DNA of 64,000 nt from a virus (IMGVR_UViG_3300005805_000063:1-64000); one strand, 5' to 3'. Positions 3,233-32,265 are shown, counted from the first letter of the stretch. The notes: generated by a model not told the origin, from the letters alone. Program-made: numbers and translations.

Positions 3233-3251
3233 ACCTACAAATTTATCTTAT

Positions 3252-14409: not shown

Positions 14410-17400
14410 TTATTTATTTGAGATTTCGAAATCTTCGTTATAAGTTATTTCATATAGTTTATCAAGTTCCCGTGCAATTGGAATTGATTTCATTAGTGGT
14501 TCCGGGTCCATTTCATAAAGAGAACGGAATACCCTTTTTCCAGTTGCTTCAAAATAAGCCAATCCTATTGGAGTCCATACAAATGAAGGATTTGCAAATA
14601 AGTTTGTAAGAGTCATCAGGTCATCTAATGCATTTCGATAAACTTTTGAAGCCGCTTGTCCACGAAAATTATCTTTATCCTCTTCCCAAGGCCATTCAAT
14701 TGCCATCAATGCAAGTGAAAGTGCAACAATTGCAAGGTCACTTAAACTTCTGGTGATATTGTTTTTTTGTACGGTTGTTAAAGGAACCTTTTGCTCTTTA
14801 GTACGGCGAAGATTATCAAAAAGAGCAAGCCAACTCATTATTATTCCCTCTAGTTGGTCTCCTTTCCAAAAGGCATAAGTATTTCCTTCAGCGTCTTGTT
14901 CAAATGCATATTGTCCAATTGTGGCAGATTCTGGTACTTTTTCTAAACCAATACCTAAAGTATATCTATCAAATTTAGCAGTAAGCCAGTTTTTGCTTGC
15001 TAAAAAAGCTTTTCCGGTCCACATGAAATTCATAAGTGAACGAGACTCCCGGTCGTTTGTACCAAGAAGATAATTGGCATGATTCCGTATGGAATTAATC
15101 ATATTATCATCATACCCATCTGAGAGTTTTGCTCCCGTTTCATCTCCATTATTTGAAGCAATTACATTTCTTAAAGCTTTCTTTTGCTGAGGTGTAAGCT
15201 TACTTGCAGAGTTGAATCGCTGGTCTTTTGATTCATCATAAATGAGTTCTCCATTTACTATACTATAAGCATCCCAGCTTCCATCTTCAATCATTTGTGC
15301 AATCATAAGATGCATCCTTGATTGATAGTCCGCCCCTGATAAAAGACTAAACATATATTTACTACGAAGCAGAAACTTATCACCTGATTTATGGTAACCA
15401 TTGAGCATGGAGCCAATATCATCGTTAAACATCCTGAACTTACGCATAAGCAAGGATATTTTGTCATAAGCCTGAGGGTCGTAAAAACGACTGCTAAAAA
15501 CTTTTGAAACTTCTAGAATTGCACGTGTTCTTGAGGATGCGCTAAAACGATTGGATTTTGAAAGAGAGTTTGCAATACTCTCAGACAGAATTGTCAATTC
15601 GTTTCCAAGATATGAAGTTGCAGCAGTAAAAGGGTTAAATGCGTAAAGTCCTACAGAAGAAACTCTTGATGCAATCCTGCTGATTTTATTAAGTGTAGTG
15701 TTTGCATCAACGTCTCTGTTGTCAAGATTGACCGTTTTAACAATGTTAATCCAGTCAATATTTCCATCTAACCTTCCTTCCAAAAGATTGCTATTGTACC
15801 ATTGATAGATACTATTTGCAGCTTTGAGAGACGACCCAAGATTATTAAATACCTCATGTCTGAGACTTTCAACTACAAAAATATCCATGATGGATTCAAG
15901 GTCCGTACTCCATTGAGAGTAATCATCAACATTGACAAATCCATCATTCTGAATTCCCAGCAAAGCATCTCGCTTATCATCAGTCAGTGTATTTGACTGA
16001 CTGTGAAAAATGTTCACATCTGATGCTTTTCTGTCCTCTCCCATTCCAAAGCTGGAATCAAAATCAAGCAAAAGGTCATTTATTAAATCGCGGTACCTTC
16101 CGGGAACTCCGCTATTCTTCATGCTTTGAATCCTGTTGGAGACAGACGCTCTGACAAGTGGAACTGCTCCGTCAACCTCCCATTTGATATTATTCTTATC
16201 AGCCAGCTTTTTGATTATCTTCTTTGAAACAATTATAAGATTCTGAGCAGCTGGTGAAAGTGCCTTAAATTCATCAGAGTTTTCAGGATGAAATTTAAAT
16301 GTATTAAACTCAATTTCTTTTATCCCTTCTGGAGTTTGTATTTTCTTCTTTTCCTTTACAAACAATTCGTTATAACTGTTTGCTGTATTTCCGGGATTGA
16401 ACAATTCTGTTCCAATGTATCCTTCAAGTCCAAGGATATTAAAGGTAAGACCTTTTTCATCATAGAACTTTTTCAATGCGTTATTAAACTCATCCTTATA
16501 CTCTGTCCAAAATCCCTGTGAGAGTTTATTAGCAGCAGTATGAAGTTTTGCATTGAGTTTCTGAAGCAGTGGATTGCCTACATTCTGAGGAAGACTGACA
16601 TTCTTATTAAATACATTTACAGGCAGTAGACTCGCATCCATCTCCTGCATTTGGAAGTAAAAGTTAGCAAGAAGAAAAGTCGAATCGTCAGTATTGACGT
16701 TCTTACCCATGTTGACATAATTCTTAAAGTATGCTTCAACTTTCTTCAGCATTTCAGCCCGCTTGCTTTGGTCTTTTGAAAGATTATCAAGCTGATTTGC
16801 AAGTGCTCCTATATTATCATCTTCCTCTTTACGTGAGCGGATGTAGTTTATAAGAACGTCCAACCAGTTTGCACGATAGGATTTATAGTCAAGAAGAGAT
16901 TTATTATTAATTGTATCGAGCAAAGATTTTGCATTCCCAAAGATGCTCTCAACAAGTATAGGGTCATTTTTAATTGACTTGATTGTTTCAAGTCCTTCCT
17001 TAATATCAATTGTATCTCCAAAGACAGACCCGGTTCCAATTCCATAAACCATGTTAAGACCAAATCCAATATCTGAATTTGCCTCTTTTAGTTTCATTGC
17101 AATTAGAACACCTTCAAATTTACGCGCATCTCCAAGTGTGTTTTTAAAAGGACTATTTATCCTGTCTGTTCTGATTTTATCTCCAAATTTTCCAAAGAGA
17201 GAATCATTTCCATATCCTTCTGTAGAAAACCTTTTGTTCAGATTTTCAGCCCCGATATAAATTAGATGTCTGGTTTTTCCATCTTCAATGACTATCCAAT
17301 TCTTTTTATCTTCAAATCCTTTAATGTCTGACAGATTTGAAACTTTGATATCTGTACGTTTGATAAAAGGACGAAGGGATGTTTCAATAATTCTTAACTT

Positions 17401-18654
17401 ATCTCCAATAGACCTGAGATATTTTACATCTCCACTTTCAAGATAATTTGAAACACCAAGTGCCAAGTCATTATTTATCTTCTCAGATTTTTTGATGTAT
17501 TCATCAATTATCTGTTGTTGCTGAAGAACAGGGTCGGAACTTGTAAATGAATGGTGATTTCCCGCAGAATCAAAATATCCAAATATCCCACCTCGATATC
17601 CCGTTTTAACACGTTTGGCTTTTTCTGAAGGACTTGAAACATGTGTTGCTATTGACCCTGTAAGAGTTGTGAAGACGTCCGAGCTGTCGTCTTTGCCAAT
17701 AATTGCAGCCGATGATGGTGCAAAGGAAGATTTTCCAAAGATGATGTCCAGCTGGCGTGTTGCATAAGAATCCATTTTCCATGACTTGATAGATTCCATA
17801 GGAAGGACTTTTCCATCAGAGTAGCCACGAGAAATATCATTATCATCAACAAACTTAAGTTCAATTGGAACAATGAAATGGTCGCTGACAGGTTGATTAT
17901 CAGCCCATTCAGTCATCCGTCCATAACCCATTGTTTGTACAGAATATCGCTTTGCCTTGTAAGAGTTATATGCAAATGGGTCCCAAATCTTAACTCCAGA
18001 TTCCTCTTTTTCCTTAGTGCGATAAACTGTCTTTAAGTCTACAATGTATTTACGTCCTTCCGGAGAATAAATAATTAAATCAGATCTTCCGGCCATTCTT
18101 GCCCCCTCACCTGAGTTTTCTGCATAAAGCATTTTTTCAGAAACCAATTTGCCCATTTTGGACAAACGCTCTTTAAGGTCGGTAAGCTGCTTTAATAAAT
18201 TAGAAGGTATTCCTTTTTCTGCAATAAACTTCTTAAGATTCTCATCATTAACAGGGTCTGAACTTTCTACAACTTTTTGAAATAAGTTGTGAATTAATGT
18301 GCCAGACTCAGAGAAAACACTAAGTTTTTCAATATTCCTTTTTGTGACTTTTATATTCAACTCAGGAATTGTATCAACCATTTCAGACATTGAAGCAATA
18401 CTGATTGAATCATCGCCTCTCCAACTATACTTATGGTTTACATCATCATACTCAATGTTTTTAACAGCATTTTCAATGGCATCTATTTTATCCTGAATTG
18501 GACGGTTAAATGTCTCAAAGGCTTTTTCAATACCCTGACCCGGATGCAGGTCTTCATGTGCTCTCCACATACGGTAGGCGGCACGTGTATCTCCATTAAG
18601 CAGGTTTACCAGCTTGTTGTATTCGGGACCTATTGGAGGACAGATTGAAGCCAT
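14410..18654 (-). CDS. Large ejected (cargo) virion protein with N-terminal PD-(D/E)XK nuclease domain
   Basis: 1414 aa, immediately after the vRNAP gene. EKMLY...MAGRSDLIIY...KYIVDLKT...YSVQTMGY gives RecB/Cas4-type motifs II-IV; the rest is largely helical. Confidence 0.65.
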   Translation of the reverse strand: MASICPPIGPEYNKLVNLLNGDTRAAYRMWRAHEDLHPGQGIEKAFETFNRPIQDKIDAIENAVKNIEYDDVNHKYSWRGDDSISIASMSEMVDTIPELNIKVTKRNIEKLSVFSESGTLIHNLFQKVVESSDPVNDENLKKFIAEKGIPSNLLKQLTDLKERLSKMGKLVSEKMLYAENSGEGARMAGRSDLIIYSPEGRKYIVDLKTVYRTKEKEESGVKIWDPFAYNSYKAKRYSVQTMGYGRMTEWADNQPVSDHFIVPIELKFVDDNDISRGYSDGKVLPMESIKSWKMDSYATRQLDIIFGKSSFAPSSAAIIGKDDSSDVFTTLTGSIATHVSSPSEKAKRVKTGYRGGIFGYFDSAGNHHSFTSSDPVLQQQQIIDEYIKKSEKINNDLALGVSNYLESGDVKYLRSIGDKLRIIETSLRPFIKRTDIKVSNLSDIKGFEDKKNWIVIEDGKTRHLIYIGAENLNKRFSTEGYGNDSLFGKFGDKIRTDRINSPFKNTLGDARKFEGVLIAMKLKEANSDIGFGLNMVYGIGTGSVFGDTIDIKEGLETIKSIKNDPILVESIFGNAKSLLDTINNKSLLDYKSYRANWLDVLINYIRSRKEEDDNIGALANQLDNLSKDQSKRAEMLKKVEAYFKNYVNMGKNVNTDDSTFLLANFYFQMQEMDASLLPVNVFNKNVSLPQNVGNPLLQKLNAKLHTAANKLSQGFWTEYKDEFNNALKKFYDEKGLTFNILGLEGYIGTELFNPGNTANSYNELFVKEKKKIQTPEGIKEIEFNTFKFHPENSDEFKALSPAAQNLIIVSKKIIKKLADKNNIKWEVDGAVPLVRASVSNRIQSMKNSGVPGRYRDLINDLLLDFDSSFGMGEDRKASDVNIFHSQSNTLTDDKRDALLGIQNDGFVNVDDYSQWSTDLESIMDIFVVESLRHEVFNNLGSSLKAANSIYQWYNSNLLEGRLDGNIDWINIVKTVNLDNRDVDANTTLNKISRIASRVSSVGLYAFNPFTAATSYLGNELTILSESIANSLSKSNRFSASSRTRAILEVSKVFSSRFYDPQAYDKISLLMRKFRMFNDDIGSMLNGYHKSGDKFLLRSKYMFSLLSGADYQSRMHLMIAQMIEDGSWDAYSIVNGELIYDESKDQRFNSASKLTPQQKKALRNVIASNNGDETGAKLSDGYDDNMINSIRNHANYLLGTNDRESRSLMNFMWTGKAFLASKNWLTAKFDRYTLGIGLEKVPESATIGQYAFEQDAEGNTYAFWKGDQLEGIIMSWLALFDNLRRTKEQKVPLTTVQKNNITRSLSDLAIVALSLALMAIEWPWEEDKDNFRGQAASKVYRNALDDLMTLTNLFANPSFVWTPIGLAYFEATGKRVFRSLYEMDPEPLMKSIPIARELDKLYEITYNEDFEISNK

Positions 18655-18660
18655 ATTCTA

Positions 18661-21600
18661 CTATCTTGGATTTACGTAACTTCCGCTTACCTCATCGTAG
18701 ACTTTAATTGAGCATTTTGCCATGTTGTTCTCAGTCTCTTTATTAGTCGTATAAGGGACAAACTTGTTTTTTCCAACATTCATTAATGCCCTCTGAATCC
18801 GGTCGTTTACAGGCATTTGACTGTTTTTAAACGCAAGATACTCATATTCTATATTAAAATTTTCGTATTGCTCAAGCGTTTCAAAGGCATTATAGGGCAA
18901 GGCAGTCGAGTAGGTGCCATCGGCTAATTTGACCGGGGAAGTCCACCTTTTCATTCTGAAATTGACTTCTAATACCTTTTTATCAACCCGGACAACAGGA
19001 TTGTTATTAACCATAATAACAGCTGCTGCGTAAGGAGATATCGATAATTTATTGATATAAGTCACATACTCAACATTGATAGGCTCCTTAAAATCCTTTG
19101 AGATATAAGTTTTCTTTCCTACCAATTTTGCAGGGTTCTTTTCAAACTTAAAGTCTGAATAAGGTATTGCAAGATTATTTAATTTGGCCCTGCCATGTTC
19201 ATTTGCAATTTCCTGATTAATTGCATCTGCAAGACTCTTGTTAGGAATGTTAACTTCATAATCAAGGAAATTGATATAATCTGATTTATCATCGATTGAC
19301 ATCAGACTGGTAAATGAGCCTTTTGAATTTCTATCTCTTGTTACAATGAGATTGTAAATAAACAGACGTTTGCGGTCAATAGGCTCAAGTCTCTGAAATT
19401 CTTCCATGTATAACGCACGCAAGTCATCATTCATGTCATAGAAATCATACATCCTGATTTTTGATTCTTTTGTAAAATCATTGGTATCCAAAGTCAAATC
19501 CTTTATGAATTCGTTATCTGGATATTTTGACTTAAGATTCAAAAGACTGTTGTTGACTTCATTAATAAACTGAATCCGACCCTCGTATGAACCGAGATTT
19601 GCAGTTGTAATCAAAGAGGTATCTCTTGAGTTCAGATAGGCGTGAATGTACATTCCATGAACAGTGTTATAATCCCTTGTAAAGTTTTTTGGATTATAAC
19701 GATAATTAATTGAAACGCCTTCCTTAGGCTCTGAAAGCAAAGCCTCATTTCTCAAATTCTCACTAGTCACAGCATATATAGTATTATACGCTTTGATGTC
19801 CTTAAACATATTATGAGCCTGAGCGATTGCTTCCTGATATGCACGCATGTGAGGAGCATTGTCAAATATCTCAAGAATATTGTTGTCGTGATTTCCAGTA
19901 GCAATCAGAGAATCATACAATTTTATCTGCCTCTCAGCATAGCTGCGGTCATCTGAGAAGAATCTTTCAAAATTAAATGGTTCGGTCTGTAAACCTGCTT
20001 TTGAGTAAGACATGTTTACATAATTCTCAAGAGTCAGGATATGAGATGCAATATCTTCCATCGTGATAGGGATATCACGATTAATAAGACTTTGGGTCAA
20101 TACATCCCATTCTGTTTTATACAAATACAACTTCTGCATCTCAAGGGGTTGACTGTTAATGTTAAACCCTTTAGTTGAGTTGTATTCTTTTGACTTCCTT
20201 ATTGCATCAAAGAATGGTTTTTTTGCATTGATATATTCAGCAATTTGGGAAATGCTCATTCCTGTAGATACAAGATAGCTTATGTACGGAGCAGTAATTT
20301 GGTCAAATGACAGAGGACCAAGTACTCCTTCGTTTGCATTATCAACAGCTGCAGAAATCAGAGATGCAAAATTCTCCCAAATCTTATCCGGTTCGCCGGA
20401 GAAATCTTTTCCTTCTTTAATTTCCTTAAGTCTCTTTGCAAGATAGATGACATTATATGCTTTTGCACCATTTGCAAATATGCCTACAAGATTTTTACCA
20501 CCTGCCTGATTCATTTCGTGGATTTGCAGAAGCGACATCAGATGGTCAAACTTAAGTTTCTGCTCTTCAGAAGAACCTTCAAGAATAACTTCTTTCAAAG
20601 CTCGTAACTCTGTCATTACATCTTCCAATGTAGTGTTAAGTTCAATGAGTGATTTTGAATCGGACAAAACATCATTCATTGCTCGTGCAAGCTCGTTCTT
20701 CTGAGCTATCTTTTGGATAGCTTTCAAATCCTCTTTTGAGAAATTCTTAACTGATTTAATCTCATTAAGATTAGATTCAAAAGGAATCAATCCGGTAGGG
20801 CGTACATTCTTTACAACAAATTGAGAGTAATTGGGATTTCTAGGATCATAGGTCTTAATCTCACGACCTCCTTTAACGGTCGGGTCAACCATAGTATATT
20901 CCTTAATACTCTGATAGGTTACATATGAACCTTTGTCATAGTCTTGGTCAGCACCCTGTACAGTAAACAATTCGGCAGGTACCATAACTGAATTCATCGA
21001 CCCTTGGAAGAATCCTGCAATTACAGTCGAAACGGCAGAGTGCTTTCCAGATGTAGGAATCCTTGCCATTACTCCTTCAAGACGTGTCCTGAAAGACTCA
21101 TACATCAGTTTTGCCCTCTTCTTTTTGTTATCAGAAATTATCTTTGAATTGAATTCGTCTGGAGTTAACAGTTTTTGCAAGAAATACCTCTCATTGATTT
21201 CGTCAATTGGAATATTATTGGCAATAACATCATCCAATTCAAAGTCCTCAAACATTTCGGCAGGAAGAAGGATTTCGGCAAATCCCTTTGACCATTTATC
21301 ATTCCTAAGTGAGTTGTTTATTGTTTCTTGGTCAATCCCAGTTTCATACATCTCAGTCAGTGAAACTCCATCCTCACGAACAGGAGACTGCCATTTAAGT
21401 CTGCGTGAAGTGATTTTATATTTTTGTGTATCTAAGTTTCTAACTTGAGATTTAAGAAGAATCCGTTTTACAGGCGATTTTGTAGTTATATTGGCTTGTG
21501 GTTGAGCAAATGTATTAGCGTATACATCACGTATAGCTTGTTTACCTTGTTCAGTAATTTGTCTAGTTCCAATTCCAGCAAAATTCTTTTTAAGAACAGG

Positions 21601-24600
21601 TACTGCAGACTGAACAAACATCTGACCGTTCCAAGTATACCAGTTGTTATCTTTTTGGTTAAATACATGGATTTCACGGTTATTAGCCTGACCCATAGCA
21701 ACCGCCCAACCAGTACCACCCTCTACAGTTTTCATATCCTCACTAATAGGAGCAACAGCTACAATCTGTTCAGAGTTTTTAACTTGAAACCAGTTACGGG
21801 CAAGAAGGTTAATTGTCTCAGTTTTCTGAGGATTTTTACCAAGTACTACCGCAGCTTTACGCATCTCAGCAATACCTTCCTGAAGCTGCTCTTTAGTAAG
21901 AAGTACATTACCTTTAGGAGTCTTATTTCCATAGTAGTAATGCTGATGATTTACAACCCCGACTTTTCTACCCTCATCGTCCCATATAGAATCTGCACCT
22001 AAAGCACCACCAGAGTGGTTAGTGTACTCGGCTGGATTATTTATTTCATATATAGTAGGTTTAACAGCAGATTGACCAGCTTGTGGTTGAGATAAAGCAG
22101 CTAGTTCTGCATCATATTTAGCGTTTATTACATCTTCTATTGTAAATGCAGCATAGACCTGTCCACCCATTAATCTAATGGTAGCACCTTCTGGTAAATT
22201 AATCTGTTTACCATCAATAGTAAATTCAACCCTATTATCTTCTTTACTAGCTTTAATATAAGTAATATTCCAGCCGAAATTATCTTTAAAAAATTTACCT
22301 ATTTTAGATAGTTTCTGTTCGACAGTTACACCTTCTGGAGCAATTACTTCACCATACTCTTTGGTTAAAGTTTTACTTTTTTCTATATCAGCTTTCTTAT
22401 CAGAAACAGAAACTTTACTACGTTCAATAATAACTCCATTAATAAAATCAGGTATATCTACCATACCACGCATAGAGCCATCCGCTTTTACAACTTTTCC
22501 ATTTCTAAAATAAGTTACTCTTCCATTTGGTTCAATTAATTTATCGCCTTCTTGAAGTTGTTTTTTAAAATTTTCTGCTATCTCATTATTTTTGTCTGCT
22601 TCTACAGAAGATAACGCTTTACCACTTTTACCTTTAGCTCCACCAAGTTCACGAAATGTAAAATAACGTGGTATTTCTATTCTTTCTATATCAGCTTTCT
22701 TAGCTTCTACTTCCGCATACTGAGAGTATAGTTGTTGAGCTTGTTGTTTATTTTTTAACTGCACTTCAAAGTAAGAACCTTTATCAATAGCGTAACCTTT
22801 GTCTAATAAAGATTTCCAAACTTTATTTGCAGATTTATTAATATCTGCTTTGCCAAAAGCTTCTGATTTTAAGGTTTTACCTTCTTTAGCTAATTGTTCT
22901 GCTAAAGCAATATATACTTTTGTTCCATACCCTTTACCTTGAAATTCCTTTTCAAGTTCTACACCAGCCATACCTATAGAAGATGATATATAACCATTTT
23001 TATCTACAGATATTACACCTGCATATTTCCCATTTATTTTAATAGGATACGATGTTGCCTCAAAATTATCAGGATTAAATCTTGGTTCATCTAATTGTAT
23101 TTCAGAAGTATTAGGCGCGGCTTCTTCTGTAGATATCTCTTCAACTTCATAAACATCCATCAAAGAAGGATGGATTACAAAATGACCACCTTGTAACCCA
23201 AAGGCAACCGCTGAGTTACGGATGTTAGTTGCAATTGTTTGAGTATACTTTGGAGCAATTGTCCTGTCATTAATTGACAGACGATTTACTGAAGCAGCAT
23301 CGGTTCGATAATTAGACCCATCAGTTGAGAGTAAATCCTCTCTCATGATTTCGCTAAAATATTTTACCCTTTCAGCAACTTTCATTTTACTAAGTTCCTG
23401 AATATATGACTTTGTCATATCAGACAAAGTATCATAGAACTTCTTCAGAACCGGAGAGTTGACCCAGTTAATTGCTATGGCGTTGACTAATTGGGTCAGT
23501 ACATTTACCTCCATTCCTTGAGACGGGTCTTTGGCACCATCTTGCTGGATACCCTTCATTGTAATATCAATGGTGGATACCTTAGGATTTGGGTCTGAAA
23601 GTTTGTTTACTCCTCGCTGACCAGTCTTTTCAGAAGATTGAAAAATAGCTTCATCAACAATATAGTCTTGAAAACCATTCTCAACCATTATGTCCATTGC
23701 CTTTTCAAAAATACCTTCTTGCTTTGTTGCATTTGAAAAATTAGGATTCATTCCTAATGCAATGATAAGCTGATAAGCATTTGACACAGATTCGCCATTG
23801 ACCTGAATGACTTCGGGGAAAGTCATAGCAGAGGTCATCTGAACAAATTTTTCTATTACAAATTCGTTTCCGTTTTCAAGAATATACGGAGTGATTTCAA
23901 ATTCGGCATTCTTAACAAATGATTTTGTTCCTGATTCAAAATCATTTGAATGAGTGATGTTCTTCATAACAGGACCTACAAAAGGACCTGCGTCAAGTGC
24001 ACTTGAGTAATTCTGTTTTATTCTGGTAAATGGTGTTACCAGTGTAGCACCATCCATCCATTTTTGAGATACAATTTGACCGTTTGAAAACTTAAGTACA
24101 TTATTAATAGGGTCTTCAAAACGCATTACATTTGCAACCCTTGAAAGCTTTTTACCTTCATACATCAATGAGTATGGAAGAGGCTTTCCAGGATTTTGTT
24201 GCCTGAACAATGCAACGTCAGCTGCCCAATTTTTATTCCTCAGTATAAAATACGACTCGGGAGAAATCAAAGACTTAGAGCGTTTTACCATGTCGATAAA
24301 AGCTTTCTGTCCTGACTCCTTATACTGGTATTTTGGACCATTCATTAAATGCTGAAACTCTCCACTAAAGAGTAGCCAGTTGGCGTAGAAGGTTTTAATA
24401 AACTCTTCCGGAGTAGCCTTACTAGAAGTTATAGCTATTTGGTTGTAAAGAGTTACGCCACCACCTCTTTGATTCTTTGAATATTCAACAACTTTCTGTG
24501 CATCTGCAAGAATACGGTCTATAAAAGCCTGTTTATTTGCAGGATTCATGTACATATTAATGTCATCAATCAATTCTTGTTTGATTGACAAAGGTCCTTT

Positions 24601-27600
24601 TACAGACTTCTCATTGTAATGCACACCGGATACCATATTAGGGTACGATATCAAGGTGTTGATTTGGTCTTCAGTAAGTTTTGAAAGTATAGAATTAAGT
24701 TCTCCAATGCTTTTTGCAGAAATTCCAACTTCGCGATAGTCATTCAAAATTTTGAATTCCAAACCAGCATAATACTTGGTTCTGCTATCAAACAAATCTC
24801 CAAGTGTTTTTTCTGCTGGCTGCAGGAAATTATTTGAATAGAAAATTGGAGATATCTCCTGACTTGCATCTGCATAAACTGTAATCGGGAAAGTAGCTTC
24901 GTTTCTTCCGTTTTCAATCTGAGTTACATACCCCTCAATCAAATAGAGGTCAAGAAGTTCAGGAACAGTTAGCTGACTTACCGACTTAGTAAATTCAAAT
25001 CCGTTTTTATTAATTTTAAATCCAAGATGTGTAAACGGAGGCTTTGAAGAAATTCCATAGGAGGAGTTTCCATCCACCAAAAGATTTGTCTGAAGTAGTG
25101 GACTTTTCTGAGCACTTGAAACAACATGTTTCAAATGGAAAATAGGAGCACTATCTCGAAGACCGTACTGACGTTTTCCAGTCCCATCTTTAAATGAGAA
25201 GTCATTTCCTAATCCTTTTGCAGAAACAAACTGCTCAATTATTTTATCCATTACCAATCCAAGGGACGGCAAAGAGGCCTGCTTTTTATTGTAGTTCTTT
25301 ACAGAAGCAAAGAAGTAATCCTGAATCTGACCAAGAATTGTAGGGTCTACTGCAATGGCATCTTGAAGCATTTCAGATGTAAATCCTTCAAATCCCATGC
25401 CCTTGAGCATGCGTAAAGCATTCTCGGGAGTTACATTTTTTTCAACTGTATAGAGTTGACCATTGAGATTTACATCACCGTTAGAAACTGAAATTCTTCC
25501 TGTGCTAAGGATTCTTGCGAACTTGTCCAGGAATTGAGTTTTGATGTACTGAGGATTAAATCCACCAATTGGAAGCTTAGCCGTTCTTTGCTCACTAGAT
25601 GTATTCTCGTCATAATAAACGTTAACATCTACAAATCCAGGTGAATAAACTTGACCTTTGGTAAGAAAGCTGAGTATTGCGTTGGTTAAATTCTGACCAG
25701 CAGGCGTCTCTACTCCACGAGTAGAGTAAGTAAGGTTATTGGTTTGTGACCCTGTAACAGATGAGGGTTCTGGGGATTTTGAGAAGAATCGCTTATAGAT
25801 GGCCTTTGCCTCTGGCAATGAGGAGTTGCTTAAAACTTCTGCAATTTCATCCAATGTTCTAATGGCCTGTCCGTCTGAATTTGTGTTATTCTTAATCAGC
25901 TTAAGGACATTGGATATATTCTTAGAGGTGATGTAATTTCCATTTGCAAGTCTGGTATTGTACAGATAAGTTTTTACAATGGAGTTCATGCCATCTCCAA
26001 GGAGATTCTCCATTTCTTTTTCTGCAAAAGAACCGGATTTTGACAGGTCATTTCCGTAGTAATACTCGTCTTTTGAACTATTATATTTTATAGAAGGAAA
26101 GTACTGTGCCAGTAATCCATTGAAATTGCTTCCCAAAGCATACTGAATTCGAGACTCAGTATTTGTCTTTTGGGACATGAGATTGCCATTTGACAAATAA
26201 ATCTTTTTCAGATTTGTCATTGCCTCGTTTGCATCAAGGATTCTGGGAGTTCCGCCTTCAGGAACTGTCAGAACAAGATGGCTTGCAACAACATCCTTCT
26301 TGAATTTATCAATTGCTTTTCTTGCAAGGTTAGGTTGATTTGGAAATTCCCTCCTTCTGAATTCAACAATTGAAATCGGATTTACTGAGATGGCCGGTCC
26401 TTGTACAGATTCTTGTACACTTTGTTGTACAGTTTGTTGTACAGTTTTACCAACTGGTTGAACCGGAGCAGCTTCCTTATTTTGAGTAGATATCTCAGAA
26501 AGAACTGCCTCAATTGGAATCTGTATCTTAGGAAGATCCAATTTAAAGTAGTTTGCAGAAATAACCCTATTGAGGAAATTTTCCTGATATGGTACAGATT
26601 GAGCATAAAGATTTTGCTCAAATCCTGAACTACCTTTTGACAAAACCGGACTAAACCGAAGACCTCTTGAGAAGGCTTTATTCTCCATCATAGCCATTAA
26701 GAGTTTCCTCTTAGGCTCTGAGTTCATATTTAAAAGTTTCTTTGCGTCCTTCTCAAGAGAGATTTTAACATAATCATCTAGCAAATACTCAACTGGATAT
26801 CCGCCCTCAACTCTTATCTTTTTACCATTGGCAAGAATTACTTCATGCGCTTTTCTTTCGACATCCATCTTCTTCAAGAACATGTCTACTTGAGGGTCTT
26901 TTTTAGACAGCTCTTGTTTTACATTATTGAAAATCTCTTCGTAAAGACGTTTGCCCTTTGACCTAGGTGATTGCCAAAATGAATTGTAGAGATTTTTAAA
27001 TTCAGCACTTGTTGCTTCGTAGTAGCCTTTCTGATTTCTACTATAAAACGGAGAAAGTAATTCAACAATTTGGTCCAAGCTCAATGACTCACGATTTAGA
27101 GTCATTGTTTTGATGTCGTCTCCTAAAACATCAAATTCATTGTTATACATCTGCCTGGCCGAGTGTTTATAACTCAGTGCAACAAATGGCTCTCCTTTCA
27201 GTACGGATACTTTTCCTTTTGAATTAATTATGTCAGCCGTTGCTATTAAAATAGGACTTACAGCAATTCCTTTTGACTTTGCCTCTGATAAGATATTTGA
27301 GTATGTCTTTTTATCAACGGCTTCAGATTGCTTATTTCCATCCGGAGATACATTTTTTGAAGAAGATTCATTTTCAATAAAAGGGTGAAAGAACTGACCC
27401 GCCCGTAATATATTATTTGAAACCGGATATGTTGCTACAATATCCTTTGTTTCACCTTGCGTAATAATATTAAGATTTCGCAAGGTTGTTTCAACCTTCT
27501 CACCTCCGGCACGATATATTACACCAAGCACAGCCCGCTTGTTATCCGGAGTAACTGCTTCAAGAAAGATTGCGTACTTTCCATTGAATTTGGAGGAATC

Positions 27601-30600
27601 AATTCTTGCATCTGCAACATATCCCGGAGAACCTATTTTGGCAATTGTAACCTGATAGTTTGAGTTATCGCGGACGCTTGGATTAAACAGAATTGATTTC
27701 TTTATTTCCAACTCACCCTGAACATCATAGAATGTATTTAACAATACCCTGTTTTCGGTATTGGTCATTGCATTCATTATCCTGCGGTAATCAGCCATCT
27801 CCAAATCATCCTGACTTACAGGGCTAGGAGCAGAAGTTTCAGTTGTTGTTGGTGTCTGAACAACTGGAGGAACGGCCTGAGAAGGAGTTTTGATTGTCTC
27901 CGCAGGATTAAAAGAAGAATCAATTGTTTGGCCTTGAAGGATGCTGTCAATTTCACCAAGCATGGTCTGCTGTGAAATTTCAGGAGGTGTCATTGGCTTA
28001 AATTCCTTAACTACCCCCTCAACAGAGCTTACAGGCATTGAAGGAGATGCGTAAACAATCACACCTTTCTTTGCCCGTGTAACGGCTGTATATACTTCTT
28101 TCTGACGGATACTTGAGCCAAATATTTCACCATCAGAAGTATCAACAACCACATAATCCCATTCATCACCTTGAGATTGTACGCTATCAAGTACATTCAG
28201 TGAAAGTGCACTTGCAGAAGATACAGCTGTATTTTCAGGATTAGCATTGATGTAAACCATTGAAGAGAGATTCTTTTCACTCTTCAGTTTTGTTGCCAAG
28301 TCAACTACTAATTTTTCAAGTTCTTCTTTATTGCTTACAAAGCGGACTCCGTTAAAATCCTTATCGTAATTCAGAGCAATATTTGAAGGAAGAGCATTGG
28401 AAAACTGGGAATTCCTTAAAGCATTTTCAAGAGCTTTTAAAGGATTGTTTACAGACCTGAATGAGAATGTCAGCCTCGGAGTTGATGGTACAGAAATTAC
28501 AGGACTTGTAATTGAGTAAGTAGTTTTGCTGTTTTTCTCCCTAAATCCATTTTGTGCTTCATCATAAGTATAAATTAAATGAACTGGATTATTTGGACGG
28601 GATTGATTTACTCTTAAAAGCTCAGTGTTGATTTTATTCAATTCACTTGCACTCAGCAAAGCGGCTTCATCAAATATGATTGCAGATACATTTTTAACCT
28701 CATTGGATTTCAAGATATCAATAAGGCTTGAATCAGAATGCTGAATAAAATCAGGCTTTCCTTTAAAGAACTTTTCTACATCACTACGAACCTTCTGTAT
28801 TTTCTTTCCTGAAGGGTCTTTATAAGCAGTTACAATGACATTTCCACCTGTCATTTTATTTATCATAGCTGCGATAAAAGGAATTTCCGTAACCGTTTTA
28901 CCTGTTCCGGGGCCTCCGTTTACTGCAGAAGTATAACTTAAATGAAACAGTTCTCTGCTAGAATTTTTTACCCTGAAGTCATAATTACCAGCCATTGCAT
29001 TTCGCAATGCCAATTCTGCAACAAGCTGATGTTCCCTGGTAGGGGTTTTGACATCGGGTTTAAGTTCAGCAATTACCTCGCGTGCTGCCTGAACAAACTT
29101 TGTTGGGTCGTTTGAAAGAACAGCACGAGCGTAATCATAGGTATTCTTTGCCAAAATACCTTCATCGGATAACAATTCCGGGTCACCTCCCTTAAATGTC
29201 TTTTGAAGTTTCTGCAGTACTTCGGTTCTCTGACTTCTAACAAAGTCAAACATCTTTTTATCAACCTGAAGTGACTCTCGACGATAGCTGATATAATCTT
29301 GCTTATCAAGAGCTTCCTGCATTTCTACTTCATGCTCAGAGAAGATTTCGCCTATTTTTGGAATATCAGTCTCAAGAAGCTTTACAAAATTCTGTAAAAC
29401 ATTAAACTGCTTCTCAAGTGACTTTATATAAACCTGAAGAATCCTTGCATCGGTATTCTTTTCATTTTCATCAGAAAGAGCTTTGAGTTGTGCAAACTGG
29501 CCTTTCAGAGTGGCCAATGTCAACAGTGCATTCTTAGTATCATATACTTCTGCGCTGATAATTTCATTGTAACCTTTCTTATTCTTAAGAGCGTAGTTAC
29601 CTAATACTTGGGAAATCCTGTCGTCAATTACCTGTATAATACGGTCAGGCTCAGGGCTTACAAACATTTTAGAAAGCCTGTCAGACTCTTCTTTAGGAGT
29701 TCCGGTTAATTGACCAGCAGCTCTGGCAAGCTCTTCCAATTTAGATTCTAAAGGAACGGTTGATTTACCATTCTCAAAATCATAATATAAATGAGAGTCA
29801 CCCTCAATATCAGGAGCTGTTTTATAAGTTTTCTTTTGAGAAACTTTATTTACTAATTCCTCGGCTGCAAACAAAGGAGCAACTTTTGCATACCACTCCT
29901 CATTCTTATAAGGTTCAACTGCTCTTTTTAATACTTCCTGTGAGAATCGGAAACTAAATTCCGGATTTGACGTATGTACAAGAGAAGCATCAAAATCTTC
30001 ATCATCTGCAAAGATTTCATTAATGATGTTATCAACTCCTGAGTTTTTATAATTTTCTACTTCCTGATTTCTGCGGGCATTTGCCTCATCCAAAAGACGC
30101 TGTTTGGCATCTGGAGTTATGTCAAGCTCATTAAAGTTGTCCAAATTTGCTTTGGCTGAGTTTTGAATAAGCTCTTGATTTCGCTTTGAAACCTCAGATT
30201 TCAACCTGTCACGATTGTTCCTTGAATCAGTATTCATCAAGGTGAATAACTTACCATTAAAATGGTCGTTATTTCGTAATCCAAATTCAGTCAGACCTTC
30301 AATTCCCAAATCTGAGGAGTCAATAACTGTTGATTTCAGATGTGGATTACTCTCGACATTATAGAGACCTTCAGTAATATATCTTGAAACCTGAGACCCG
30401 GAATTAAATTCAGAAATCTCAGCTTTTTTAGCCTCGACTTGTTTGGTGAGATTTTCAATCAGCTGTTTGTCATCTGCTTTTTCTGCATTTTCAAGCTGAT
30501 TGGTAAGAGTTGCTAGTTCATTTTGCAGGATGATTTTATCCCTGCCAATTGAACTGGATTTTAATATATCCGCAAAAATGCCTGCTTTCTTCTCATTGTT

Positions 30601-32265
30601 TTTAATAGCATCCGTAATACCCGCCCTGTCACGGATAGTGGACATTGTGTTTAGAATCTCTCTGAGAGCAGTTGCATTTCTTGTGTTCTCGTCTCCCGTT
30701 TTTCCATCTTTTGACAAACGACCTGCTTTTTCCCAATCGTTAATCATTTTATGTACAAAACCTTCGTCATTAAAAGCAACAGCTGCTTCAAATGAATCAA
30801 CTAATTCCCTATCATAGTTTGATAACTTTTTAAGAATGGGGTGTGCAATAGCACCGCCAAATGCACCTCCAGCACCTGACTGAAGAATTGCTTCAACTTC
30901 CCTTCCCAAATCCCACTGAAAGCGACCCTGTAGAGGTAGCAGCTCCGCCATTACATTATGCAGACCTCTGATACCAGTATCTACAGTTTGTTCTCCCATT
31001 TCCTCAATACCTTCAAGGAATGAGGTTTTAACATAAGGCTTTGATGAAAGAGATATCAAAGCACTTTCAAACGTTCTGCCTACTCGATTTTGAAAAGATT
31101 TTAATGCAGATTCGGTGAATCCTTTCTTTGCAATTGTAACTCCATAGTCTTGAGCAAGTTTTGGAGCTATTATCTTTTCAAGCTCAAGAGGCCTGATTCC
31201 GCGAACAATCATGTCGCTTAATCCTGACAACTTATATATTGCAGCTGCATTTGCACCATATAGAATTGCAGTTTCAACAGGACTGAGATTATTTTCCCGT
31301 GAAATTTGAGCCATGGGGCCTGCTGCCATTCCAGTCATGTAAATTCGACCGGCTGCTGATGCAGTTTTTGCAGAGCCAGAAAGTGCTCCTGCAACTTTTC
31401 CAACTGCACCCATGCTAAACAACTGCATGACAGAATCAAGACCAAGTTCTGCCAAGTGTACAGGACTAAAGAAGTTTTCTTTGGTTCTATCACTAGAGGG
31501 AAGGAGATTTTGTTTCAGTTGATTTTGTATGCCAGAAACATCTGCTCCAAAAACCCTTGGAAACTCAAGCAATGAGCTGCTTGTACTATTTATAAAATTT
31601 GGAACAGATTTAACTACTGTATAAAATCCCTCAGACAGATAACTGGGATTTAAACCATAAATGCCCATGTTATGGGCAAAAGAATCATAGCTTTCATCAA
31701 AGCTTCTGAACTCCTCATCGGCCTTAATTGGTTCCCAATAAGTACGATTGTGAGAGTCTCTTTTATAATTACCAAATTCATCCTTGGCAAGCTTAATATC
31801 TCCCTTATACTGGGCTACAGGTATATATTCATCTCCTATTTTTACACCTGTTTTAATTGCTTGCTCCCGCTCACTAAATTTCTTGGGAGAATAGTAATCT
31901 CCAAAGTTATTTCTTCCAAAAGGGTCTTCTATCTGAGTTTTTGTTGAAAAACCAATAAGAGGTTTACGAGACCACTTATCTGTTGCAACATCTATATTGA
32001 AGTCAAGTTCGTAATCGGACTTTTTTGTCTGATTGTAAACTTCTTTTTGCTTAGAGTAAAAATCAATAAAAGAGTTCTTATCATTCTTAAAATGCTCCTG
32101 AACAACAGGAGTTTTCCAGTATGTATCGAGATTCTCATCAAAGTTGAAATCAGACGCCTTTACCCCAGCAGCCATCAGCTGAGATGGAGTTTTCAGTTGT
32201 CCCGAGATGGCAGATGCAATCCAGTCTGGTTTCGGAGCTTGAGGAATTTGATTTTCATCTCCCAT
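18661..32265 (-). CDS. Giant virion-packaged RNA polymerase (crAss/phi14:2 gp66-like) fused to an SF1 helicase, with inserted GNAT-like and SLOG-like domains
   Basis: 4534 aa. Catalytic DxDxD as VQGADQDYDK (nt 20935-20949), preceded by ARIPTSG. Beta-like motifs DMVKRSK, WMDGATLVTP and FVKNAEF. Helicase motifs GGPGTGKT, IIFDEA, YDEAQ, SQGDEWDYV and YTAVTRAK. Occupies the cargo position after the muzzle gene. Confidence 0.85.
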   Translation of the reverse strand: MGDENQIPQAPKPDWIASAISGQLKTPSQLMAAGVKASDFNFDENLDTYWKTPVVQEHFKNDKNSFIDFYSKQKEVYNQTKKSDYELDFNIDVATDKWSRKPLIGFSTKTQIEDPFGRNNFGDYYSPKKFSEREQAIKTGVKIGDEYIPVAQYKGDIKLAKDEFGNYKRDSHNRTYWEPIKADEEFRSFDESYDSFAHNMGIYGLNPSYLSEGFYTVVKSVPNFINSTSSSLLEFPRVFGADVSGIQNQLKQNLLPSSDRTKENFFSPVHLAELGLDSVMQLFSMGAVGKVAGALSGSAKTASAAGRIYMTGMAAGPMAQISRENNLSPVETAILYGANAAAIYKLSGLSDMIVRGIRPLELEKIIAPKLAQDYGVTIAKKGFTESALKSFQNRVGRTFESALISLSSKPYVKTSFLEGIEEMGEQTVDTGIRGLHNVMAELLPLQGRFQWDLGREVEAILQSGAGGAFGGAIAHPILKKLSNYDRELVDSFEAAVAFNDEGFVHKMINDWEKAGRLSKDGKTGDENTRNATALREILNTMSTIRDRAGITDAIKNNEKKAGIFADILKSSSIGRDKIILQNELATLTNQLENAEKADDKQLIENLTKQVEAKKAEISEFNSGSQVSRYITEGLYNVESNPHLKSTVIDSSDLGIEGLTEFGLRNNDHFNGKLFTLMNTDSRNNRDRLKSEVSKRNQELIQNSAKANLDNFNELDITPDAKQRLLDEANARRNQEVENYKNSGVDNIINEIFADDEDFDASLVHTSNPEFSFRFSQEVLKRAVEPYKNEEWYAKVAPLFAAEELVNKVSQKKTYKTAPDIEGDSHLYYDFENGKSTVPLESKLEELARAAGQLTGTPKEESDRLSKMFVSPEPDRIIQVIDDRISQVLGNYALKNKKGYNEIISAEVYDTKNALLTLATLKGQFAQLKALSDENEKNTDARILQVYIKSLEKQFNVLQNFVKLLETDIPKIGEIFSEHEVEMQEALDKQDYISYRRESLQVDKKMFDFVRSQRTEVLQKLQKTFKGGDPELLSDEGILAKNTYDYARAVLSNDPTKFVQAAREVIAELKPDVKTPTREHQLVAELALRNAMAGNYDFRVKNSSRELFHLSYTSAVNGGPGTGKTVTEIPFIAAMINKMTGGNVIVTAYKDPSGKKIQKVRSDVEKFFKGKPDFIQHSDSSLIDILKSNEVKNVSAIIFDEAALLSASELNKINTELLRVNQSRPNNPVHLIYTYDEAQNGFREKNSKTTYSITSPVISVPSTPRLTFSFRSVNNPLKALENALRNSQFSNALPSNIALNYDKDFNGVRFVSNKEELEKLVVDLATKLKSEKNLSSMVYINANPENTAVSSASALSLNVLDSVQSQGDEWDYVVVDTSDGEIFGSSIRQKEVYTAVTRAKKGVIVYASPSMPVSSVEGVVKEFKPMTPPEISQQTMLGEIDSILQGQTIDSSFNPAETIKTPSQAVPPVVQTPTTTETSAPSPVSQDDLEMADYRRIMNAMTNTENRVLLNTFYDVQGELEIKKSILFNPSVRDNSNYQVTIAKIGSPGYVADARIDSSKFNGKYAIFLEAVTPDNKRAVLGVIYRAGGEKVETTLRNLNIITQGETKDIVATYPVSNNILRAGQFFHPFIENESSSKNVSPDGNKQSEAVDKKTYSNILSEAKSKGIAVSPILIATADIINSKGKVSVLKGEPFVALSYKHSARQMYNNEFDVLGDDIKTMTLNRESLSLDQIVELLSPFYSRNQKGYYEATSAEFKNLYNSFWQSPRSKGKRLYEEIFNNVKQELSKKDPQVDMFLKKMDVERKAHEVILANGKKIRVEGGYPVEYLLDDYVKISLEKDAKKLLNMNSEPKRKLLMAMMENKAFSRGLRFSPVLSKGSSGFEQNLYAQSVPYQENFLNRVISANYFKLDLPKIQIPIEAVLSEISTQNKEAAPVQPVGKTVQQTVQQSVQESVQGPAISVNPISIVEFRRREFPNQPNLARKAIDKFKKDVVASHLVLTVPEGGTPRILDANEAMTNLKKIYLSNGNLMSQKTNTESRIQYALGSNFNGLLAQYFPSIKYNSSKDEYYYGNDLSKSGSFAEKEMENLLGDGMNSIVKTYLYNTRLANGNYITSKNISNVLKLIKNNTNSDGQAIRTLDEIAEVLSNSSLPEAKAIYKRFFSKSPEPSSVTGSQTNNLTYSTRGVETPAGQNLTNAILSFLTKGQVYSPGFVDVNVYYDENTSSEQRTAKLPIGGFNPQYIKTQFLDKFARILSTGRISVSNGDVNLNGQLYTVEKNVTPENALRMLKGMGFEGFTSEMLQDAIAVDPTILGQIQDYFFASVKNYNKKQASLPSLGLVMDKIIEQFVSAKGLGNDFSFKDGTGKRQYGLRDSAPIFHLKHVVSSAQKSPLLQTNLLVDGNSSYGISSKPPFTHLGFKINKNGFEFTKSVSQLTVPELLDLYLIEGYVTQIENGRNEATFPITVYADASQEISPIFYSNNFLQPAEKTLGDLFDSRTKYYAGLEFKILNDYREVGISAKSIGELNSILSKLTEDQINTLISYPNMVSGVHYNEKSVKGPLSIKQELIDDINMYMNPANKQAFIDRILADAQKVVEYSKNQRGGGVTLYNQIAITSSKATPEEFIKTFYANWLLFSGEFQHLMNGPKYQYKESGQKAFIDMVKRSKSLISPESYFILRNKNWAADVALFRQQNPGKPLPYSLMYEGKKLSRVANVMRFEDPINNVLKFSNGQIVSQKWMDGATLVTPFTRIKQNYSSALDAGPFVGPVMKNITHSNDFESGTKSFVKNAEFEITPYILENGNEFVIEKFVQMTSAMTFPEVIQVNGESVSNAYQLIIALGMNPNFSNATKQEGIFEKAMDIMVENGFQDYIVDEAIFQSSEKTGQRGVNKLSDPNPKVSTIDITMKGIQQDGAKDPSQGMEVNVLTQLVNAIAINWVNSPVLKKFYDTLSDMTKSYIQELSKMKVAERVKYFSEIMREDLLSTDGSNYRTDAASVNRLSINDRTIAPKYTQTIATNIRNSAVAFGLQGGHFVIHPSLMDVYEVEEISTEEAAPNTSEIQLDEPRFNPDNFEATSYPIKINGKYAGVISVDKNGYISSSIGMAGVELEKEFQGKGYGTKVYIALAEQLAKEGKTLKSEAFGKADINKSANKVWKSLLDKGYAIDKGSYFEVQLKNKQQAQQLYSQYAEVEAKKADIERIEIPRYFTFRELGGAKGKSGKALSSVEADKNNEIAENFKKQLQEGDKLIEPNGRVTYFRNGKVVKADGSMRGMVDIPDFINGVIIERSKVSVSDKKADIEKSKTLTKEYGEVIAPEGVTVEQKLSKIGKFFKDNFGWNITYIKASKEDNRVEFTIDGKQINLPEGATIRLMGGQVYAAFTIEDVINAKYDAELAALSQPQAGQSAVKPTIYEINNPAEYTNHSGGALGADSIWDDEGRKVGVVNHQHYYYGNKTPKGNVLLTKEQLQEGIAEMRKAAVVLGKNPQKTETINLLARNWFQVKNSEQIVAVAPISEDMKTVEGGTGWAVAMGQANNREIHVFNQKDNNWYTWNGQMFVQSAVPVLKKNFAGIGTRQITEQGKQAIRDVYANTFAQPQANITTKSPVKRILLKSQVRNLDTQKYKITSRRLKWQSPVREDGVSLTEMYETGIDQETINNSLRNDKWSKGFAEILLPAEMFEDFELDDVIANNIPIDEINERYFLQKLLTPDEFNSKIISDNKKKRAKLMYESFRTRLEGVMARIPTSGKHSAVSTVIAGFFQGSMNSVMVPAELFTVQGADQDYDKGSYVTYQSIKEYTMVDPTVKGGREIKTYDPRNPNYSQFVVKNVRPTGLIPFESNLNEIKSVKNFSKEDLKAIQKIAQKNELARAMNDVLSDSKSLIELNTTLEDVMTELRALKEVILEGSSEEQKLKFDHLMSLLQIHEMNQAGGKNLVGIFANGAKAYNVIYLAKRLKEIKEGKDFSGEPDKIWENFASLISAAVDNANEGVLGPLSFDQITAPYISYLVSTGMSISQIAEYINAKKPFFDAIRKSKEYNSTKGFNINSQPLEMQKLYLYKTEWDVLTQSLINRDIPITMEDIASHILTLENYVNMSYSKAGLQTEPFNFERFFSDDRSYAERQIKLYDSLIATGNHDNNILEIFDNAPHMRAYQEAIAQAHNMFKDIKAYNTIYAVTSENLRNEALLSEPKEGVSINYRYNPKNFTRDYNTVHGMYIHAYLNSRDTSLITTANLGSYEGRIQFINEVNNSLLNLKSKYPDNEFIKDLTLDTNDFTKESKIRMYDFYDMNDDLRALYMEEFQRLEPIDRKRLFIYNLIVTRDRNSKGSFTSLMSIDDKSDYINFLDYEVNIPNKSLADAINQEIANEHGRAKLNNLAIPYSDFKFEKNPAKLVGKKTYISKDFKEPINVEYVTYINKLSISPYAAAVIMVNNNPVVRVDKKVLEVNFRMKRWTSPVKLADGTYSTALPYNAFETLEQYENFNIEYEYLAFKNSQMPVNDRIQRALMNVGKNKFVPYTTNKETENNMAKCSIKVYDEVSGSYVNPR
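22380..22702. repeat. Pair of exact 20-bp direct repeats (TTTCTATATCAGCTTTCTTA; encodes part of KKADIE) 303 bp apart, in frame, inside the vRNAP insert
   Basis: Read directly at 22380-22399 and 22683-22702. Confidence 0.85.

Follow-up and report, generated by a model that had tools for sequence, protein, structure and literature searches.

The first 64,000 nucleotides of the virus contig IMGVR_UViG_3300005805_000063 (1-64000, hereafter the window, with positions counted from its first letter) carry a giant open reading frame (ORF) of 4534 uninterrupted codons at 18661..32265. Its 4534-residue product is composed of an N-terminal region, a superfamily 1 (SF1) helicase, a two-barrel RNA polymerase (RNAP) and a C-terminal region. 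The predicted fold identifies it as a single-chain virion RNAP polyprotein of the crAss type, similar to gp66 of phage phi14:2. This ORF and all features described below lie on the minus strand unless otherwise stated. A cassette of four modules (a GNAT-like domain, two modules of unassigned fold and a SLOG-superfamily domain) is inserted at the tip of a β-hairpin between the two polymerase barrels. The modules are most likely accessory effectors of the polyvalent-protein type, and the explanation as a whole, in which a polymerase acquired an exchangeable cassette of such effectors, appears moderately probable. An initial annotation of the window had described an AT-rich effector insert within the catalytic core, on a surface loop of an ejected polymerase. 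That interpretation holds in part: its architecture stands, and its wording about the surface loop and the core needs qualification.

The polymerase core and its insertion site

The identity of the polymerase rests on fold because a profile built from 13 homologs matched only helicases in the PDB. With HMMER, neither the single sequence nor this profile found a solved relative of the C-terminal half in the PDB; gp66 was not found, and similarity between gp66 and the window protein is not detectable at the sequence level with this program. Comparison of the C-terminal 2235 residues, and of a 700-residue piece, with PDB sequences gave nothing useful. The structure across the insertion site was predicted with an insert-free homolog (P0007, residues 2560-3759; 1200 residues, 23-row alignment) in place of the window protein, to which its flanks are 39-44% identical. 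The model has a mean predicted local distance difference test score (pLDDT) of 87 and a predicted template modelling score of 0.85. Foldseek places gp66 (6vr4_A) at the top with an E-value of 1.9e-18, followed by QDE-1 and cellular β′ subunits. VIA-align (VIA) superposes model residues 26-1200 on gp66 residues 817-1969 with a Z-score of 14.4 and a root-mean-square deviation of 3.5 Å over 834 aligned residues; after gp66 it ranks QDE-1, plant RDR2, P23-45 gp96 and the cellular largest subunits. The similarity to gp66 extends over both barrels, the Connector and the bridge helix region. Because the model matches gp66 in both comparisons, the window protein is predicted to be a two-barrel RNAP of the gp66 kind, which agrees with the initial annotation of a crAss-type virion RNAP homolog.

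The part of the window protein that superposes on gp66 residues 817-1969 spans residues ~2603-4328 (19282..24459) and is interrupted by the insert. The β-like double-psi barrel is located at residues ~2712-2792 (23890..24132; model strands 135-215) and includes the invariant K2768 and K2785. The β′-like barrel, at residues 3734-3829 (20779..21066; model strands 606-701), contains an R-x-P...H-S segment and the DxDxD motif; R3735, P3737, H3742, S3743, D3773, D3775 and D3777 are invariant in the 13 homologs. The catalytic motif occupies 20935-21063, and the positions given earlier for this segment and for the β-like motifs (~23890-24132) were correct. A tblastn search of 50,697 phage records gave matches solely through the SLOG part, the full-length family was absent from an IMG/VR pattern scan, and JGI metagenomes gave one distant locus only.

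The inserted cassette consists of residues 3044-3599 (21469..23136), a net gain of ~551 residues over insert-free homologs by residue-level alignment. Alignments with 12 full-length homologs (3940-4393 residues) end at residues 3041-3063 and restart at residues 3568-3636, with nothing aligned between. The ~550-residue insert first placed at 21483-23130 (residues 3046-3594) is within a few codons of this block. To its left, a conserved strand and the first hairpin strand (residues 3025-3043; 23137..23193; model strands 445-454 and 461-466) hold the invariant G3026, G3027, H3032 and P3033. To its right, the alignment and the model place the second hairpin strand and the next helix at residues 3600-3612 (21430..21468). 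The hairpin turn is ~7 residues long in insert-free homologs, and residues 3044-3599 occupy it in the window protein. In the P0007 model, the hairpin is formed by strands 461-466 and 472-476 (pLDDT ~90), 250 residues past the β-like barrel (135-215) and 130 short of the strand that opens the catalytic barrel (606-701). Alignments with cellular β′ subunits start at model residue 442-445, in the strand just ahead of the hairpin. By linear offset, the site would correspond to the Connector of gp66 (residues 1095-1238) or to the residues just behind it; the catalytic motif of gp66 is at 1361. The insertion site is the tip of a β-hairpin at the start of the β′-like part, not a barrel strand and not the catalytic loop. 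The description of an insertion within the catalytic core is therefore right in placing the cassette between the two barrels and too strong in that the hairpin tip is outside the barrel strands and the catalytic loop.

What occupies this site varies among relatives. When the insert-free fragment was searched against 1.84 billion representatives, 67 relatives emerged, 39 of which include both flanks. Within this group, 29 are within ~40 residues of the insert-free length and eight have 41-120 extra residues, so the segment is not common to all homologs. The closest relative (P0002; 67% and 61% identical in the N-terminal and C-terminal parts, respectively), from an independent sample, has a cassette of 406-410 residues with the same start and end residues as the window cassette and an unrelated sequence. 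This cassette has no significant match in Pfam, PHROGs, PADLOC or NCBIfam, and one of its modules is 52% identical to a 120-residue insert at the same site in P0048. The 70-residue insert of P0003 is linker-like sequence only and includes a variant of a junction peptide (see below). In P0004 and P0009, the extra residues lie about a dozen positions further on, past the short helix that follows the hairpin. At this second point, a few residues downstream of the hairpin, another relative (L072, 6001-21437) has its polymerase gene divided into genes of 3179 and 1036 residues, the latter aligning with residues 3585-4522 of the window protein. Six small ORFs occupy the 2.8 kb between the halves; one matches PHROG 644 and one is weakly CarboxypepD_reg-like. 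The split means that the covalent link between the polymerase halves is dispensable, which would explain why large insertions are tolerated. The site is permissive: it tolerates from 0 to ~550 residues or a chain break. Because the site is empty in some relatives and holds 40-120 residues, an unrelated ~410-residue cassette or a gene break in others, "interchangeable", as its content was first described, is a fair word. Because the polymerase works with nothing, with other modules or split at this point, the cassette is not part of the catalytic machinery.

An intein, which would start with Cys, Ser or Thr, end in His-Asn and be followed by another Cys, Ser or Thr, was considered and rejected on the junction residues. 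The insert has Ile as its first residue and Val as its last, Lys comes directly after it, and Pfam and PHROG searches gave no match to a Hint or endonuclease family.

Base composition separates most of the cassette from the surrounding gene. GC content at third codon positions (GC3) is 0.12, 0.105 and 0.135 in modules 1, 2 and 3, respectively (a range of 0.10-0.135), compared with 0.25 in the SLOG module and 0.32 and 0.33 in the 545-residue flanks (flank values overall span 0.30-0.33). Overall GC is 0.319 for modules 1-3 together, 0.39 for SLOG and ~0.37 for the flanks, and no equally long stretch elsewhere in the giant gene reaches a GC this low. Amino acid composition fails to account for the GC3 difference. 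The shift is thus real for three of the four modules; because the SLOG part is not AT-rich, the earlier "AT-rich" is true of about two thirds of the insert. The P0002 cassette has the same pattern (GC3 of 0.128 compared with 0.25-0.26 in its flanks). The drop in GC3 in both cassettes fits their recent acquisition from lower-GC phages.

Modules, their sharing and their junctions

Module 1 (residues 3052-3173; 22747..23112) is a minimal GNAT-like domain. Pfam Acetyltransf_1 (PF00583) matches residues 3060-3150 above its cutoff of 20.7 bits, with 22.1 bits for the whole protein and 25.5 bits for a 700-residue piece. The acetyl-CoA loop, Q/R-x-x-G-x-G/A, can be read from the translation within this match at residues ~3106-3111. 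VIA aligns 88-104 residues with RimI, RimL, AAC(6') and many other GNATs at Z-scores of 5.2-6.3. The label "minimal" is used because the model (pLDDT 52-89) is of moderate confidence and has no α1-α2 helices ahead of the three-strand sheet.

Modules 2 (residues 3196-3283; 22417..22680; pLDDT 54-89) and 3 (residues 3304-3379; 22129..22356; pLDDT 56-68) have no assigned fold. Nothing significant matches them in Pfam, PHROGs, PADLOC or NCBIfam, and a protein atlas gave no usable match. Both are real units, judged from the recurrence of each alone in other giant proteins; the linkers that the initial annotation saw joining the modules are recurring ones too. No free-standing relatives of modules 2 and 3 (126-403 residues) were found. 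A model of the four-domain cassette had no Foldseek match in the PDB with an E-value below 0.001, the weak rows being GNATs and 3imk. In the alignment used for folding the cassette, MAFFT misplaced several module-3 fragments, and the version used has four stray rows.

Module 4 (residues 3409-3591; 21493..22041) is a SLOG-superfamily domain, as first suggested. PHROG 768 ("DprA-like") matches residues 3412-3546 with an E-value of 1e-10, and the model is a Rossmann-like, three-layer SLOG fold with a pLDDT of 96-98. The best VIA match, 3imk_A (a putative molybdenum-carrier protein), has a Z-score of 12.4 with 141 of 158 residues aligned, well above the rest. The next matches, with Z-scores of 5.7-6.8, are MCP 2iz5, LOG-like 1rcu and 1weh, DprA 3maj, 3uqz and 4ljk, YpsA 2nx2 and ShosA 8zva. 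Across 40 SLOG relatives, the two glycine-rich loops that follow strands 1 and 4 do not vary, nor do two further motifs. No named SLOG model of Pfam reaches its threshold; below threshold, DNA_processg_A matches nine of the 40, cpYpsA four, LDcluster4 three and YAcAr two, and nucleoside deoxyribosyltransferase models are also among the sub-threshold matches. A profile of the family found no match among PDB sequences. This SLOG family is a branch of its own, PHROG 768.

An antisense ORF of 185 codons lies within the SLOG-coding stretch, on the plus strand at 21445-22002. It is most likely a by-product of coding-strand composition.

Each module has its best match in an otherwise unrelated giant protein, at 73-94% identity; the polymerase flanks are at most 67% identical to their closest homolog. 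The GNAT module is 89% identical to residues 1240-1361 of P0021 and 88% identical to a domain in an IMG/VR contig. Thirteen other giant proteins contain module 2 at 56-83% identity and a further one has it at 31%; many of them carry a crAss-type catalytic motif. Module 3 occurs in five proteins at 37-73% identity (P0114, P0121 and P0122 at 37-61%). The SLOG module is 94% identical to residues 2343-2525 of P0015 and 34-73% identical to domains in thirty others. Many of the carriers have a crAss-type catalytic motif of their own, and several carry ART-PolyVal, NADAR/YbiA, AlkB-like, RadC or ddrB-ParB domains, which belong to the repertoire of polyvalent proteins (PMC5512222).

In IMG/VR, all SLOG relatives above 50% identity are in giant ORFs, and more distant ones are mostly free-standing genes of 185-250 residues. 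The family is present in 32 giant proteins, 20 of which have the crAss-type catalytic motif. The distance between SLOG and motif is 650-2245 residues in 18 of these 20, and the two are close only in the window protein (360 residues upstream) and in P0031 (72 downstream). A SLOG domain in the polymerase core is the exception among carriers, not the rule. The family is also carried by N4-like virion RNAPs: that of Klebsiella phage Pylas (3819 residues) has it at residues 983-1160, with 49% identity.

Two of the SLOG carriers are described here in their own right. P0031 (3309 residues) has its SLOG domain at residues 2256-2501, ~72 residues past DxDxD, and may represent a second kind of core insertion. 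The 4328-residue RNAP of crAssphage cr113_1 (L005:4392-17378) is annotated only as "DprA-like" and reads through several standard stop codons (recoded). Its catalytic motif is at residue ~3222 and its SLOG domain at residues 4053-4241, near the C-terminus.

The modules are joined by short conserved peptides. Helical junction 1 (22681..22746; model helix 124-151) contains the first copy of a six-residue peptide at residues 3189-3194, and helical junction 2 (22357..22416; model helix 248-264) contains the second copy at residues 3290-3295. Both copies are encoded, in frame, by a 23-nucleotide direct repeat (22680-22702 and 22377-22399) that is identical at 22 of 23 positions, 303 nucleotides apart, and brackets module 2. 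The peptide is encoded by the same codons at similar junctions in the giant proteins of other phages. Junction 3 (residues 3380-3391; 22093..22128) is a conserved 12-residue peptide whose last 30 nucleotides (22093-22122), encoding the ten residues 3382-3391, form a conserved DNA box. The six-residue and ten-residue peptides flank modules in many other giant proteins, sometimes repeatedly within one protein.

The box is more conserved than its surroundings. In loci fetched for other reasons, its 30 nucleotides are identical or nearly so, and the adjoining 120 nucleotides mostly have a near-random identity of 0.26-0.45, one locus with 0.63 upstream of the box being the exception. Codon choice within the box is position-specific: across the sites of the IMG/VR scan given next, mean pairwise identity at third positions is 0.82, compared with 0.48-0.65 for invariant SLOG peptides in the fetched loci. 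A scan of IMG/VR that allowed any codon version of the ten-residue peptide found 118 sites (L073-L190), 36 identical to the 30-mer of the window, 36 with one change and 20 with two (92 with at most two changes). The 59 sites of a near-exact scan have 44 upstream and 45 downstream contexts, on contigs with a GC of 0.235-0.41. Because the 30 nucleotides are near-identical, synonymous sites included, amid so many contexts, the box is a single homologous DNA element found next to dozens of distinct modules. Its role may be to offer a short patch of homology through which modules are exchanged, to connect modules structurally, to be cut by a protease, or some combination of the three. The junction peptides do not fit a T4-type L-x-E protease site; one of them would presumably fit a site of the A-x-E type. 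The ten-residue peptide was not found in the literature searched.

A broader proposal can be put forward only tentatively, and we consider it doubtful. The giant virion proteins of crAss-like and related phages would share standardized connectors, helical peptides and the conserved box, flanking every accessory module. These would permit short-homology cut-and-paste between co-infecting phages, cleavage by a maturation protease, or both. Any permissive position in an ejected protein, the RNAP core among them, could then receive modules, and the polymerase would be a delivery chassis for a fast-moving pool of effectors that act before gene expression.

Explanations for the cassette

In the explanation we favor, the lineage would have acquired four self-contained modules from the giant virion proteins of other phages at the hairpin tip between the barrels, strung together through standard helical junction peptides. 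The cassette would ride on the polymerase and be delivered into the host ahead of gene expression. The GNAT domain would acylate a host or phage target, and the SLOG domain would bind or cleave a nucleotide-derived molecule. The gp66 polymerase is carried in virions and transcribes the early genes (preprint 10.1101/2020.03.07.982082), and in crAss001 the giant proteins associated with the RNAP travel in the capsid and have to unfold in part before they can be ejected (PMC10172136); packaging with ejection is known only in these two cases, phi14:2 and crAss001. Since homologous polymerases are packaged and ejected, the modules would reach the host at the very onset of infection. Viral SLOG domains, mostly of the YpsA-like clade, have been proposed to bind or cleave NAD-derived signals of host immunity (PMC9503650). 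The effector role is preferred because of the kinds of domain involved, their sharing in the manner of polyvalent proteins, their patchy and fast-changing distribution, and the position-independent fusion of SLOG to two kinds of RNAP. Several points weigh against it. That this protein is packaged and ejected, that its modules are active enzymes and that they take part in conflict is argued from homologs and domain families, and the complete four-module arrangement is present on one contig only. The GNAT domain, which in a moderately confident model has no α1-α2 helices, could be inactive or a pure binding module. The SLOG domain is below Pfam thresholds, and SLOG proteins of the DprA type bind single-stranded DNA, which would fit a role in the service of the polymerase. 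Modules 2 and 3 have no assignable fold, and the VIA and BFVD rows cover neither, although with a multi-domain model this is barely a test.

The main rival would have the modules assist the polymerase itself, the SLOG domain by binding single-stranded DNA or a nucleotide and the GNAT domain by binding acyl-CoA or by acylating the polymerase or DNA-bound proteins. These activities would aid or regulate early transcription from the incoming genome instead of being directed against the host. DprA chains are among the structural matches of SLOG, and gp66 transcribes single-stranded templates in vitro (preprint 10.1101/2020.03.07.982082). That crAss-type and N4-type virion RNAPs, which are unrelated, have each independently become fused to a member of the same SLOG family could reflect a shared need in transcription. 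We nevertheless regard this role as unlikely. The insert is missing at the site in 29 of 39 relatives, the best structural match of SLOG is not DprA, and its distant relatives are mostly free-standing genes of 185-250 residues in phages of many types. The SLOG domain is found anywhere from 2245 residues upstream to 1446 residues downstream of the catalytic motif, and therefore has no fixed geometry with the active site.

The cassette might also be a tolerated passenger, with modules that spread by recombination through their standard junctions and persist where harmless, bringing little or no benefit. The foreign composition and patchy distribution would be expected of such a passenger, as would the 70-residue, linker-only remnant in one relative, the junction box at more than 100 sites in more than 40 contexts, and a site that tolerates a split with inserted genes. 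However, the reading frame is open throughout the four modules, and their conserved family motifs are retained, those of SLOG being invariant in 40 relatives. Cargo space in the capsid is limited (PMC10172136), and 60 kDa of useless cargo per polymerase copy should therefore be selected against. The probability of a mere passenger is accordingly put lower than that of a role in transcription. An assembly chimera, joining reads from different phages, is very improbable. It would account for an arrangement on one contig only and for a composition that differs from the flanks, and it is compatible with the short exact repeats and with the DNA boxes common to different phages. Yet both outer joins are in frame at one precise hairpin residue, where polymerase and donors share no sequence, and in an independent sample that very residue bears a different cassette. 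At 23 nucleotides, the internal repeats are presumably shorter than the final k-mers of common assemblers.

Genome context, known systems and significance

The source record is a linear IMG/VR virus contig of 86.6 kb with an estimated completeness of 56%. The structural block preceding the giant ORF is crAss-like, with PHROG matches to a terminase (24-26% identical to Crassvirales phage terminases), a portal, a major head protein and a large virion protein. A crAss muzzle gene is present in one relative. The SF1 helicase domain of the giant protein (residues 1112-1405; 28051..28932) matches Pfam SLFN-g3_helicase and UvrD_C_2 above threshold and is UvrD/RecD/nsp13-like, with profile matches to nsp13 and RecD. 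It is located upstream of the polymerase in the same polyprotein and is kept in all close homologs. The giant ORF is followed by a gene of 1414 residues (14410-18654), a gene order also found in crAssphage cr113_1. Same-sized counterparts (1381-1427 residues) follow the giant gene in every relative examined, and a PHROG search with the 1414-residue product gave no match.

The closest known system is gp66 (6VR4). Both proteins are single chains with two double-psi barrels, DxDxD and a Connector between the barrels, encoded in a giant-gene block after the structural genes. gp66 has 2180 residues and no recognizable accessory enzyme, whereas the 4534-residue window protein also has the SF1 helicase and the four-module cassette between the barrels. 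Bacterial RNAPs offer another precedent: the β and β′ insertions SI1-SI3 are large domains in surface loops of the two-barrel core that leave function intact and are present in some lineages only. SI1-SI3 are non-enzymatic sandwich-barrel repeats, old and stable within phyla. The window cassette, in contrast, is recent and compositionally foreign, has enzyme-like modules and differs between close relatives. The junctions recall polymorphic toxins (Rhs and CDI), in which a short conserved peptide and a conserved DNA border mark the point where variable modules are swapped by recombination. Junctions of the window type differ in bordering internal modules at either end, in being present several times in one protein and in belonging to phage virion proteins, and no immunity genes accompany them. 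The N4-like virion RNAP of Pylas (Schitoviridae) has the same SLOG family in an ejected virion polymerase, but of the unrelated, T7-like single-subunit type. Its SLOG domain lies in what we take to be the N-terminal region, not the catalytic core, based on our own reading of the N4 domain layout.

Polyvalent proteins (Iyer et al. 2017, PMC5512222) similarly combine many unrelated conflict-type domains, GNAT included, in one phage or plasmid polypeptide, and are thought to be delivered with the DNA. The window protein, with helicase, RNAP, GNAT, SLOG and two further modules, has the multi-domain character that defines them. Polyvalent proteins are free-standing bead chains, while the string of modules in the window is threaded into a hairpin within the core of an essential enzyme. 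Conserved junction peptides or DNA boxes are not described in that work, in which the word "linker" does not occur. Gene boundaries vary among the RNAP genes of the crAss-like transcription block (Yutin et al. 2021, PMC7886860; preprint 10.1101/2020.03.07.982082), which is comparable to the split gene of L072. The published cases involve fusion of neighboring giant genes or disruption by introns, inteins or recoding, and no cassette site between the barrels is described (PMC7886860).

It was already known that proteins of the crAss transcription block are giant and multidomain (PMC7886860) and that polyvalent proteins carry GNAT and conflict domains (PMC5512222). We did not find described in the literature a cassette site within the two-barrel core, nor the series of empty, short, alternative-cassette and split states at such a site. 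The same is true of the conserved junction box and of the way in which a single SLOG family has repeatedly become fused to virion RNAPs of both kinds.

In the infected cell, virion RNAPs act before any other phage protein. If the favored explanation is true, exchangeable enzymes on such a polymerase would allow counter-defense or modification of the host before transcription begins. The modules would then form a ready catalogue of candidates, and two of those in the window have no known fold. The permissive site between the barrels is of use in engineering and in studying how polymerases pass between single-chain and split forms. The junction box provides a sequence handle for finding modules in metagenomes, and it makes the shuffling of domains in giant phage proteins testable.

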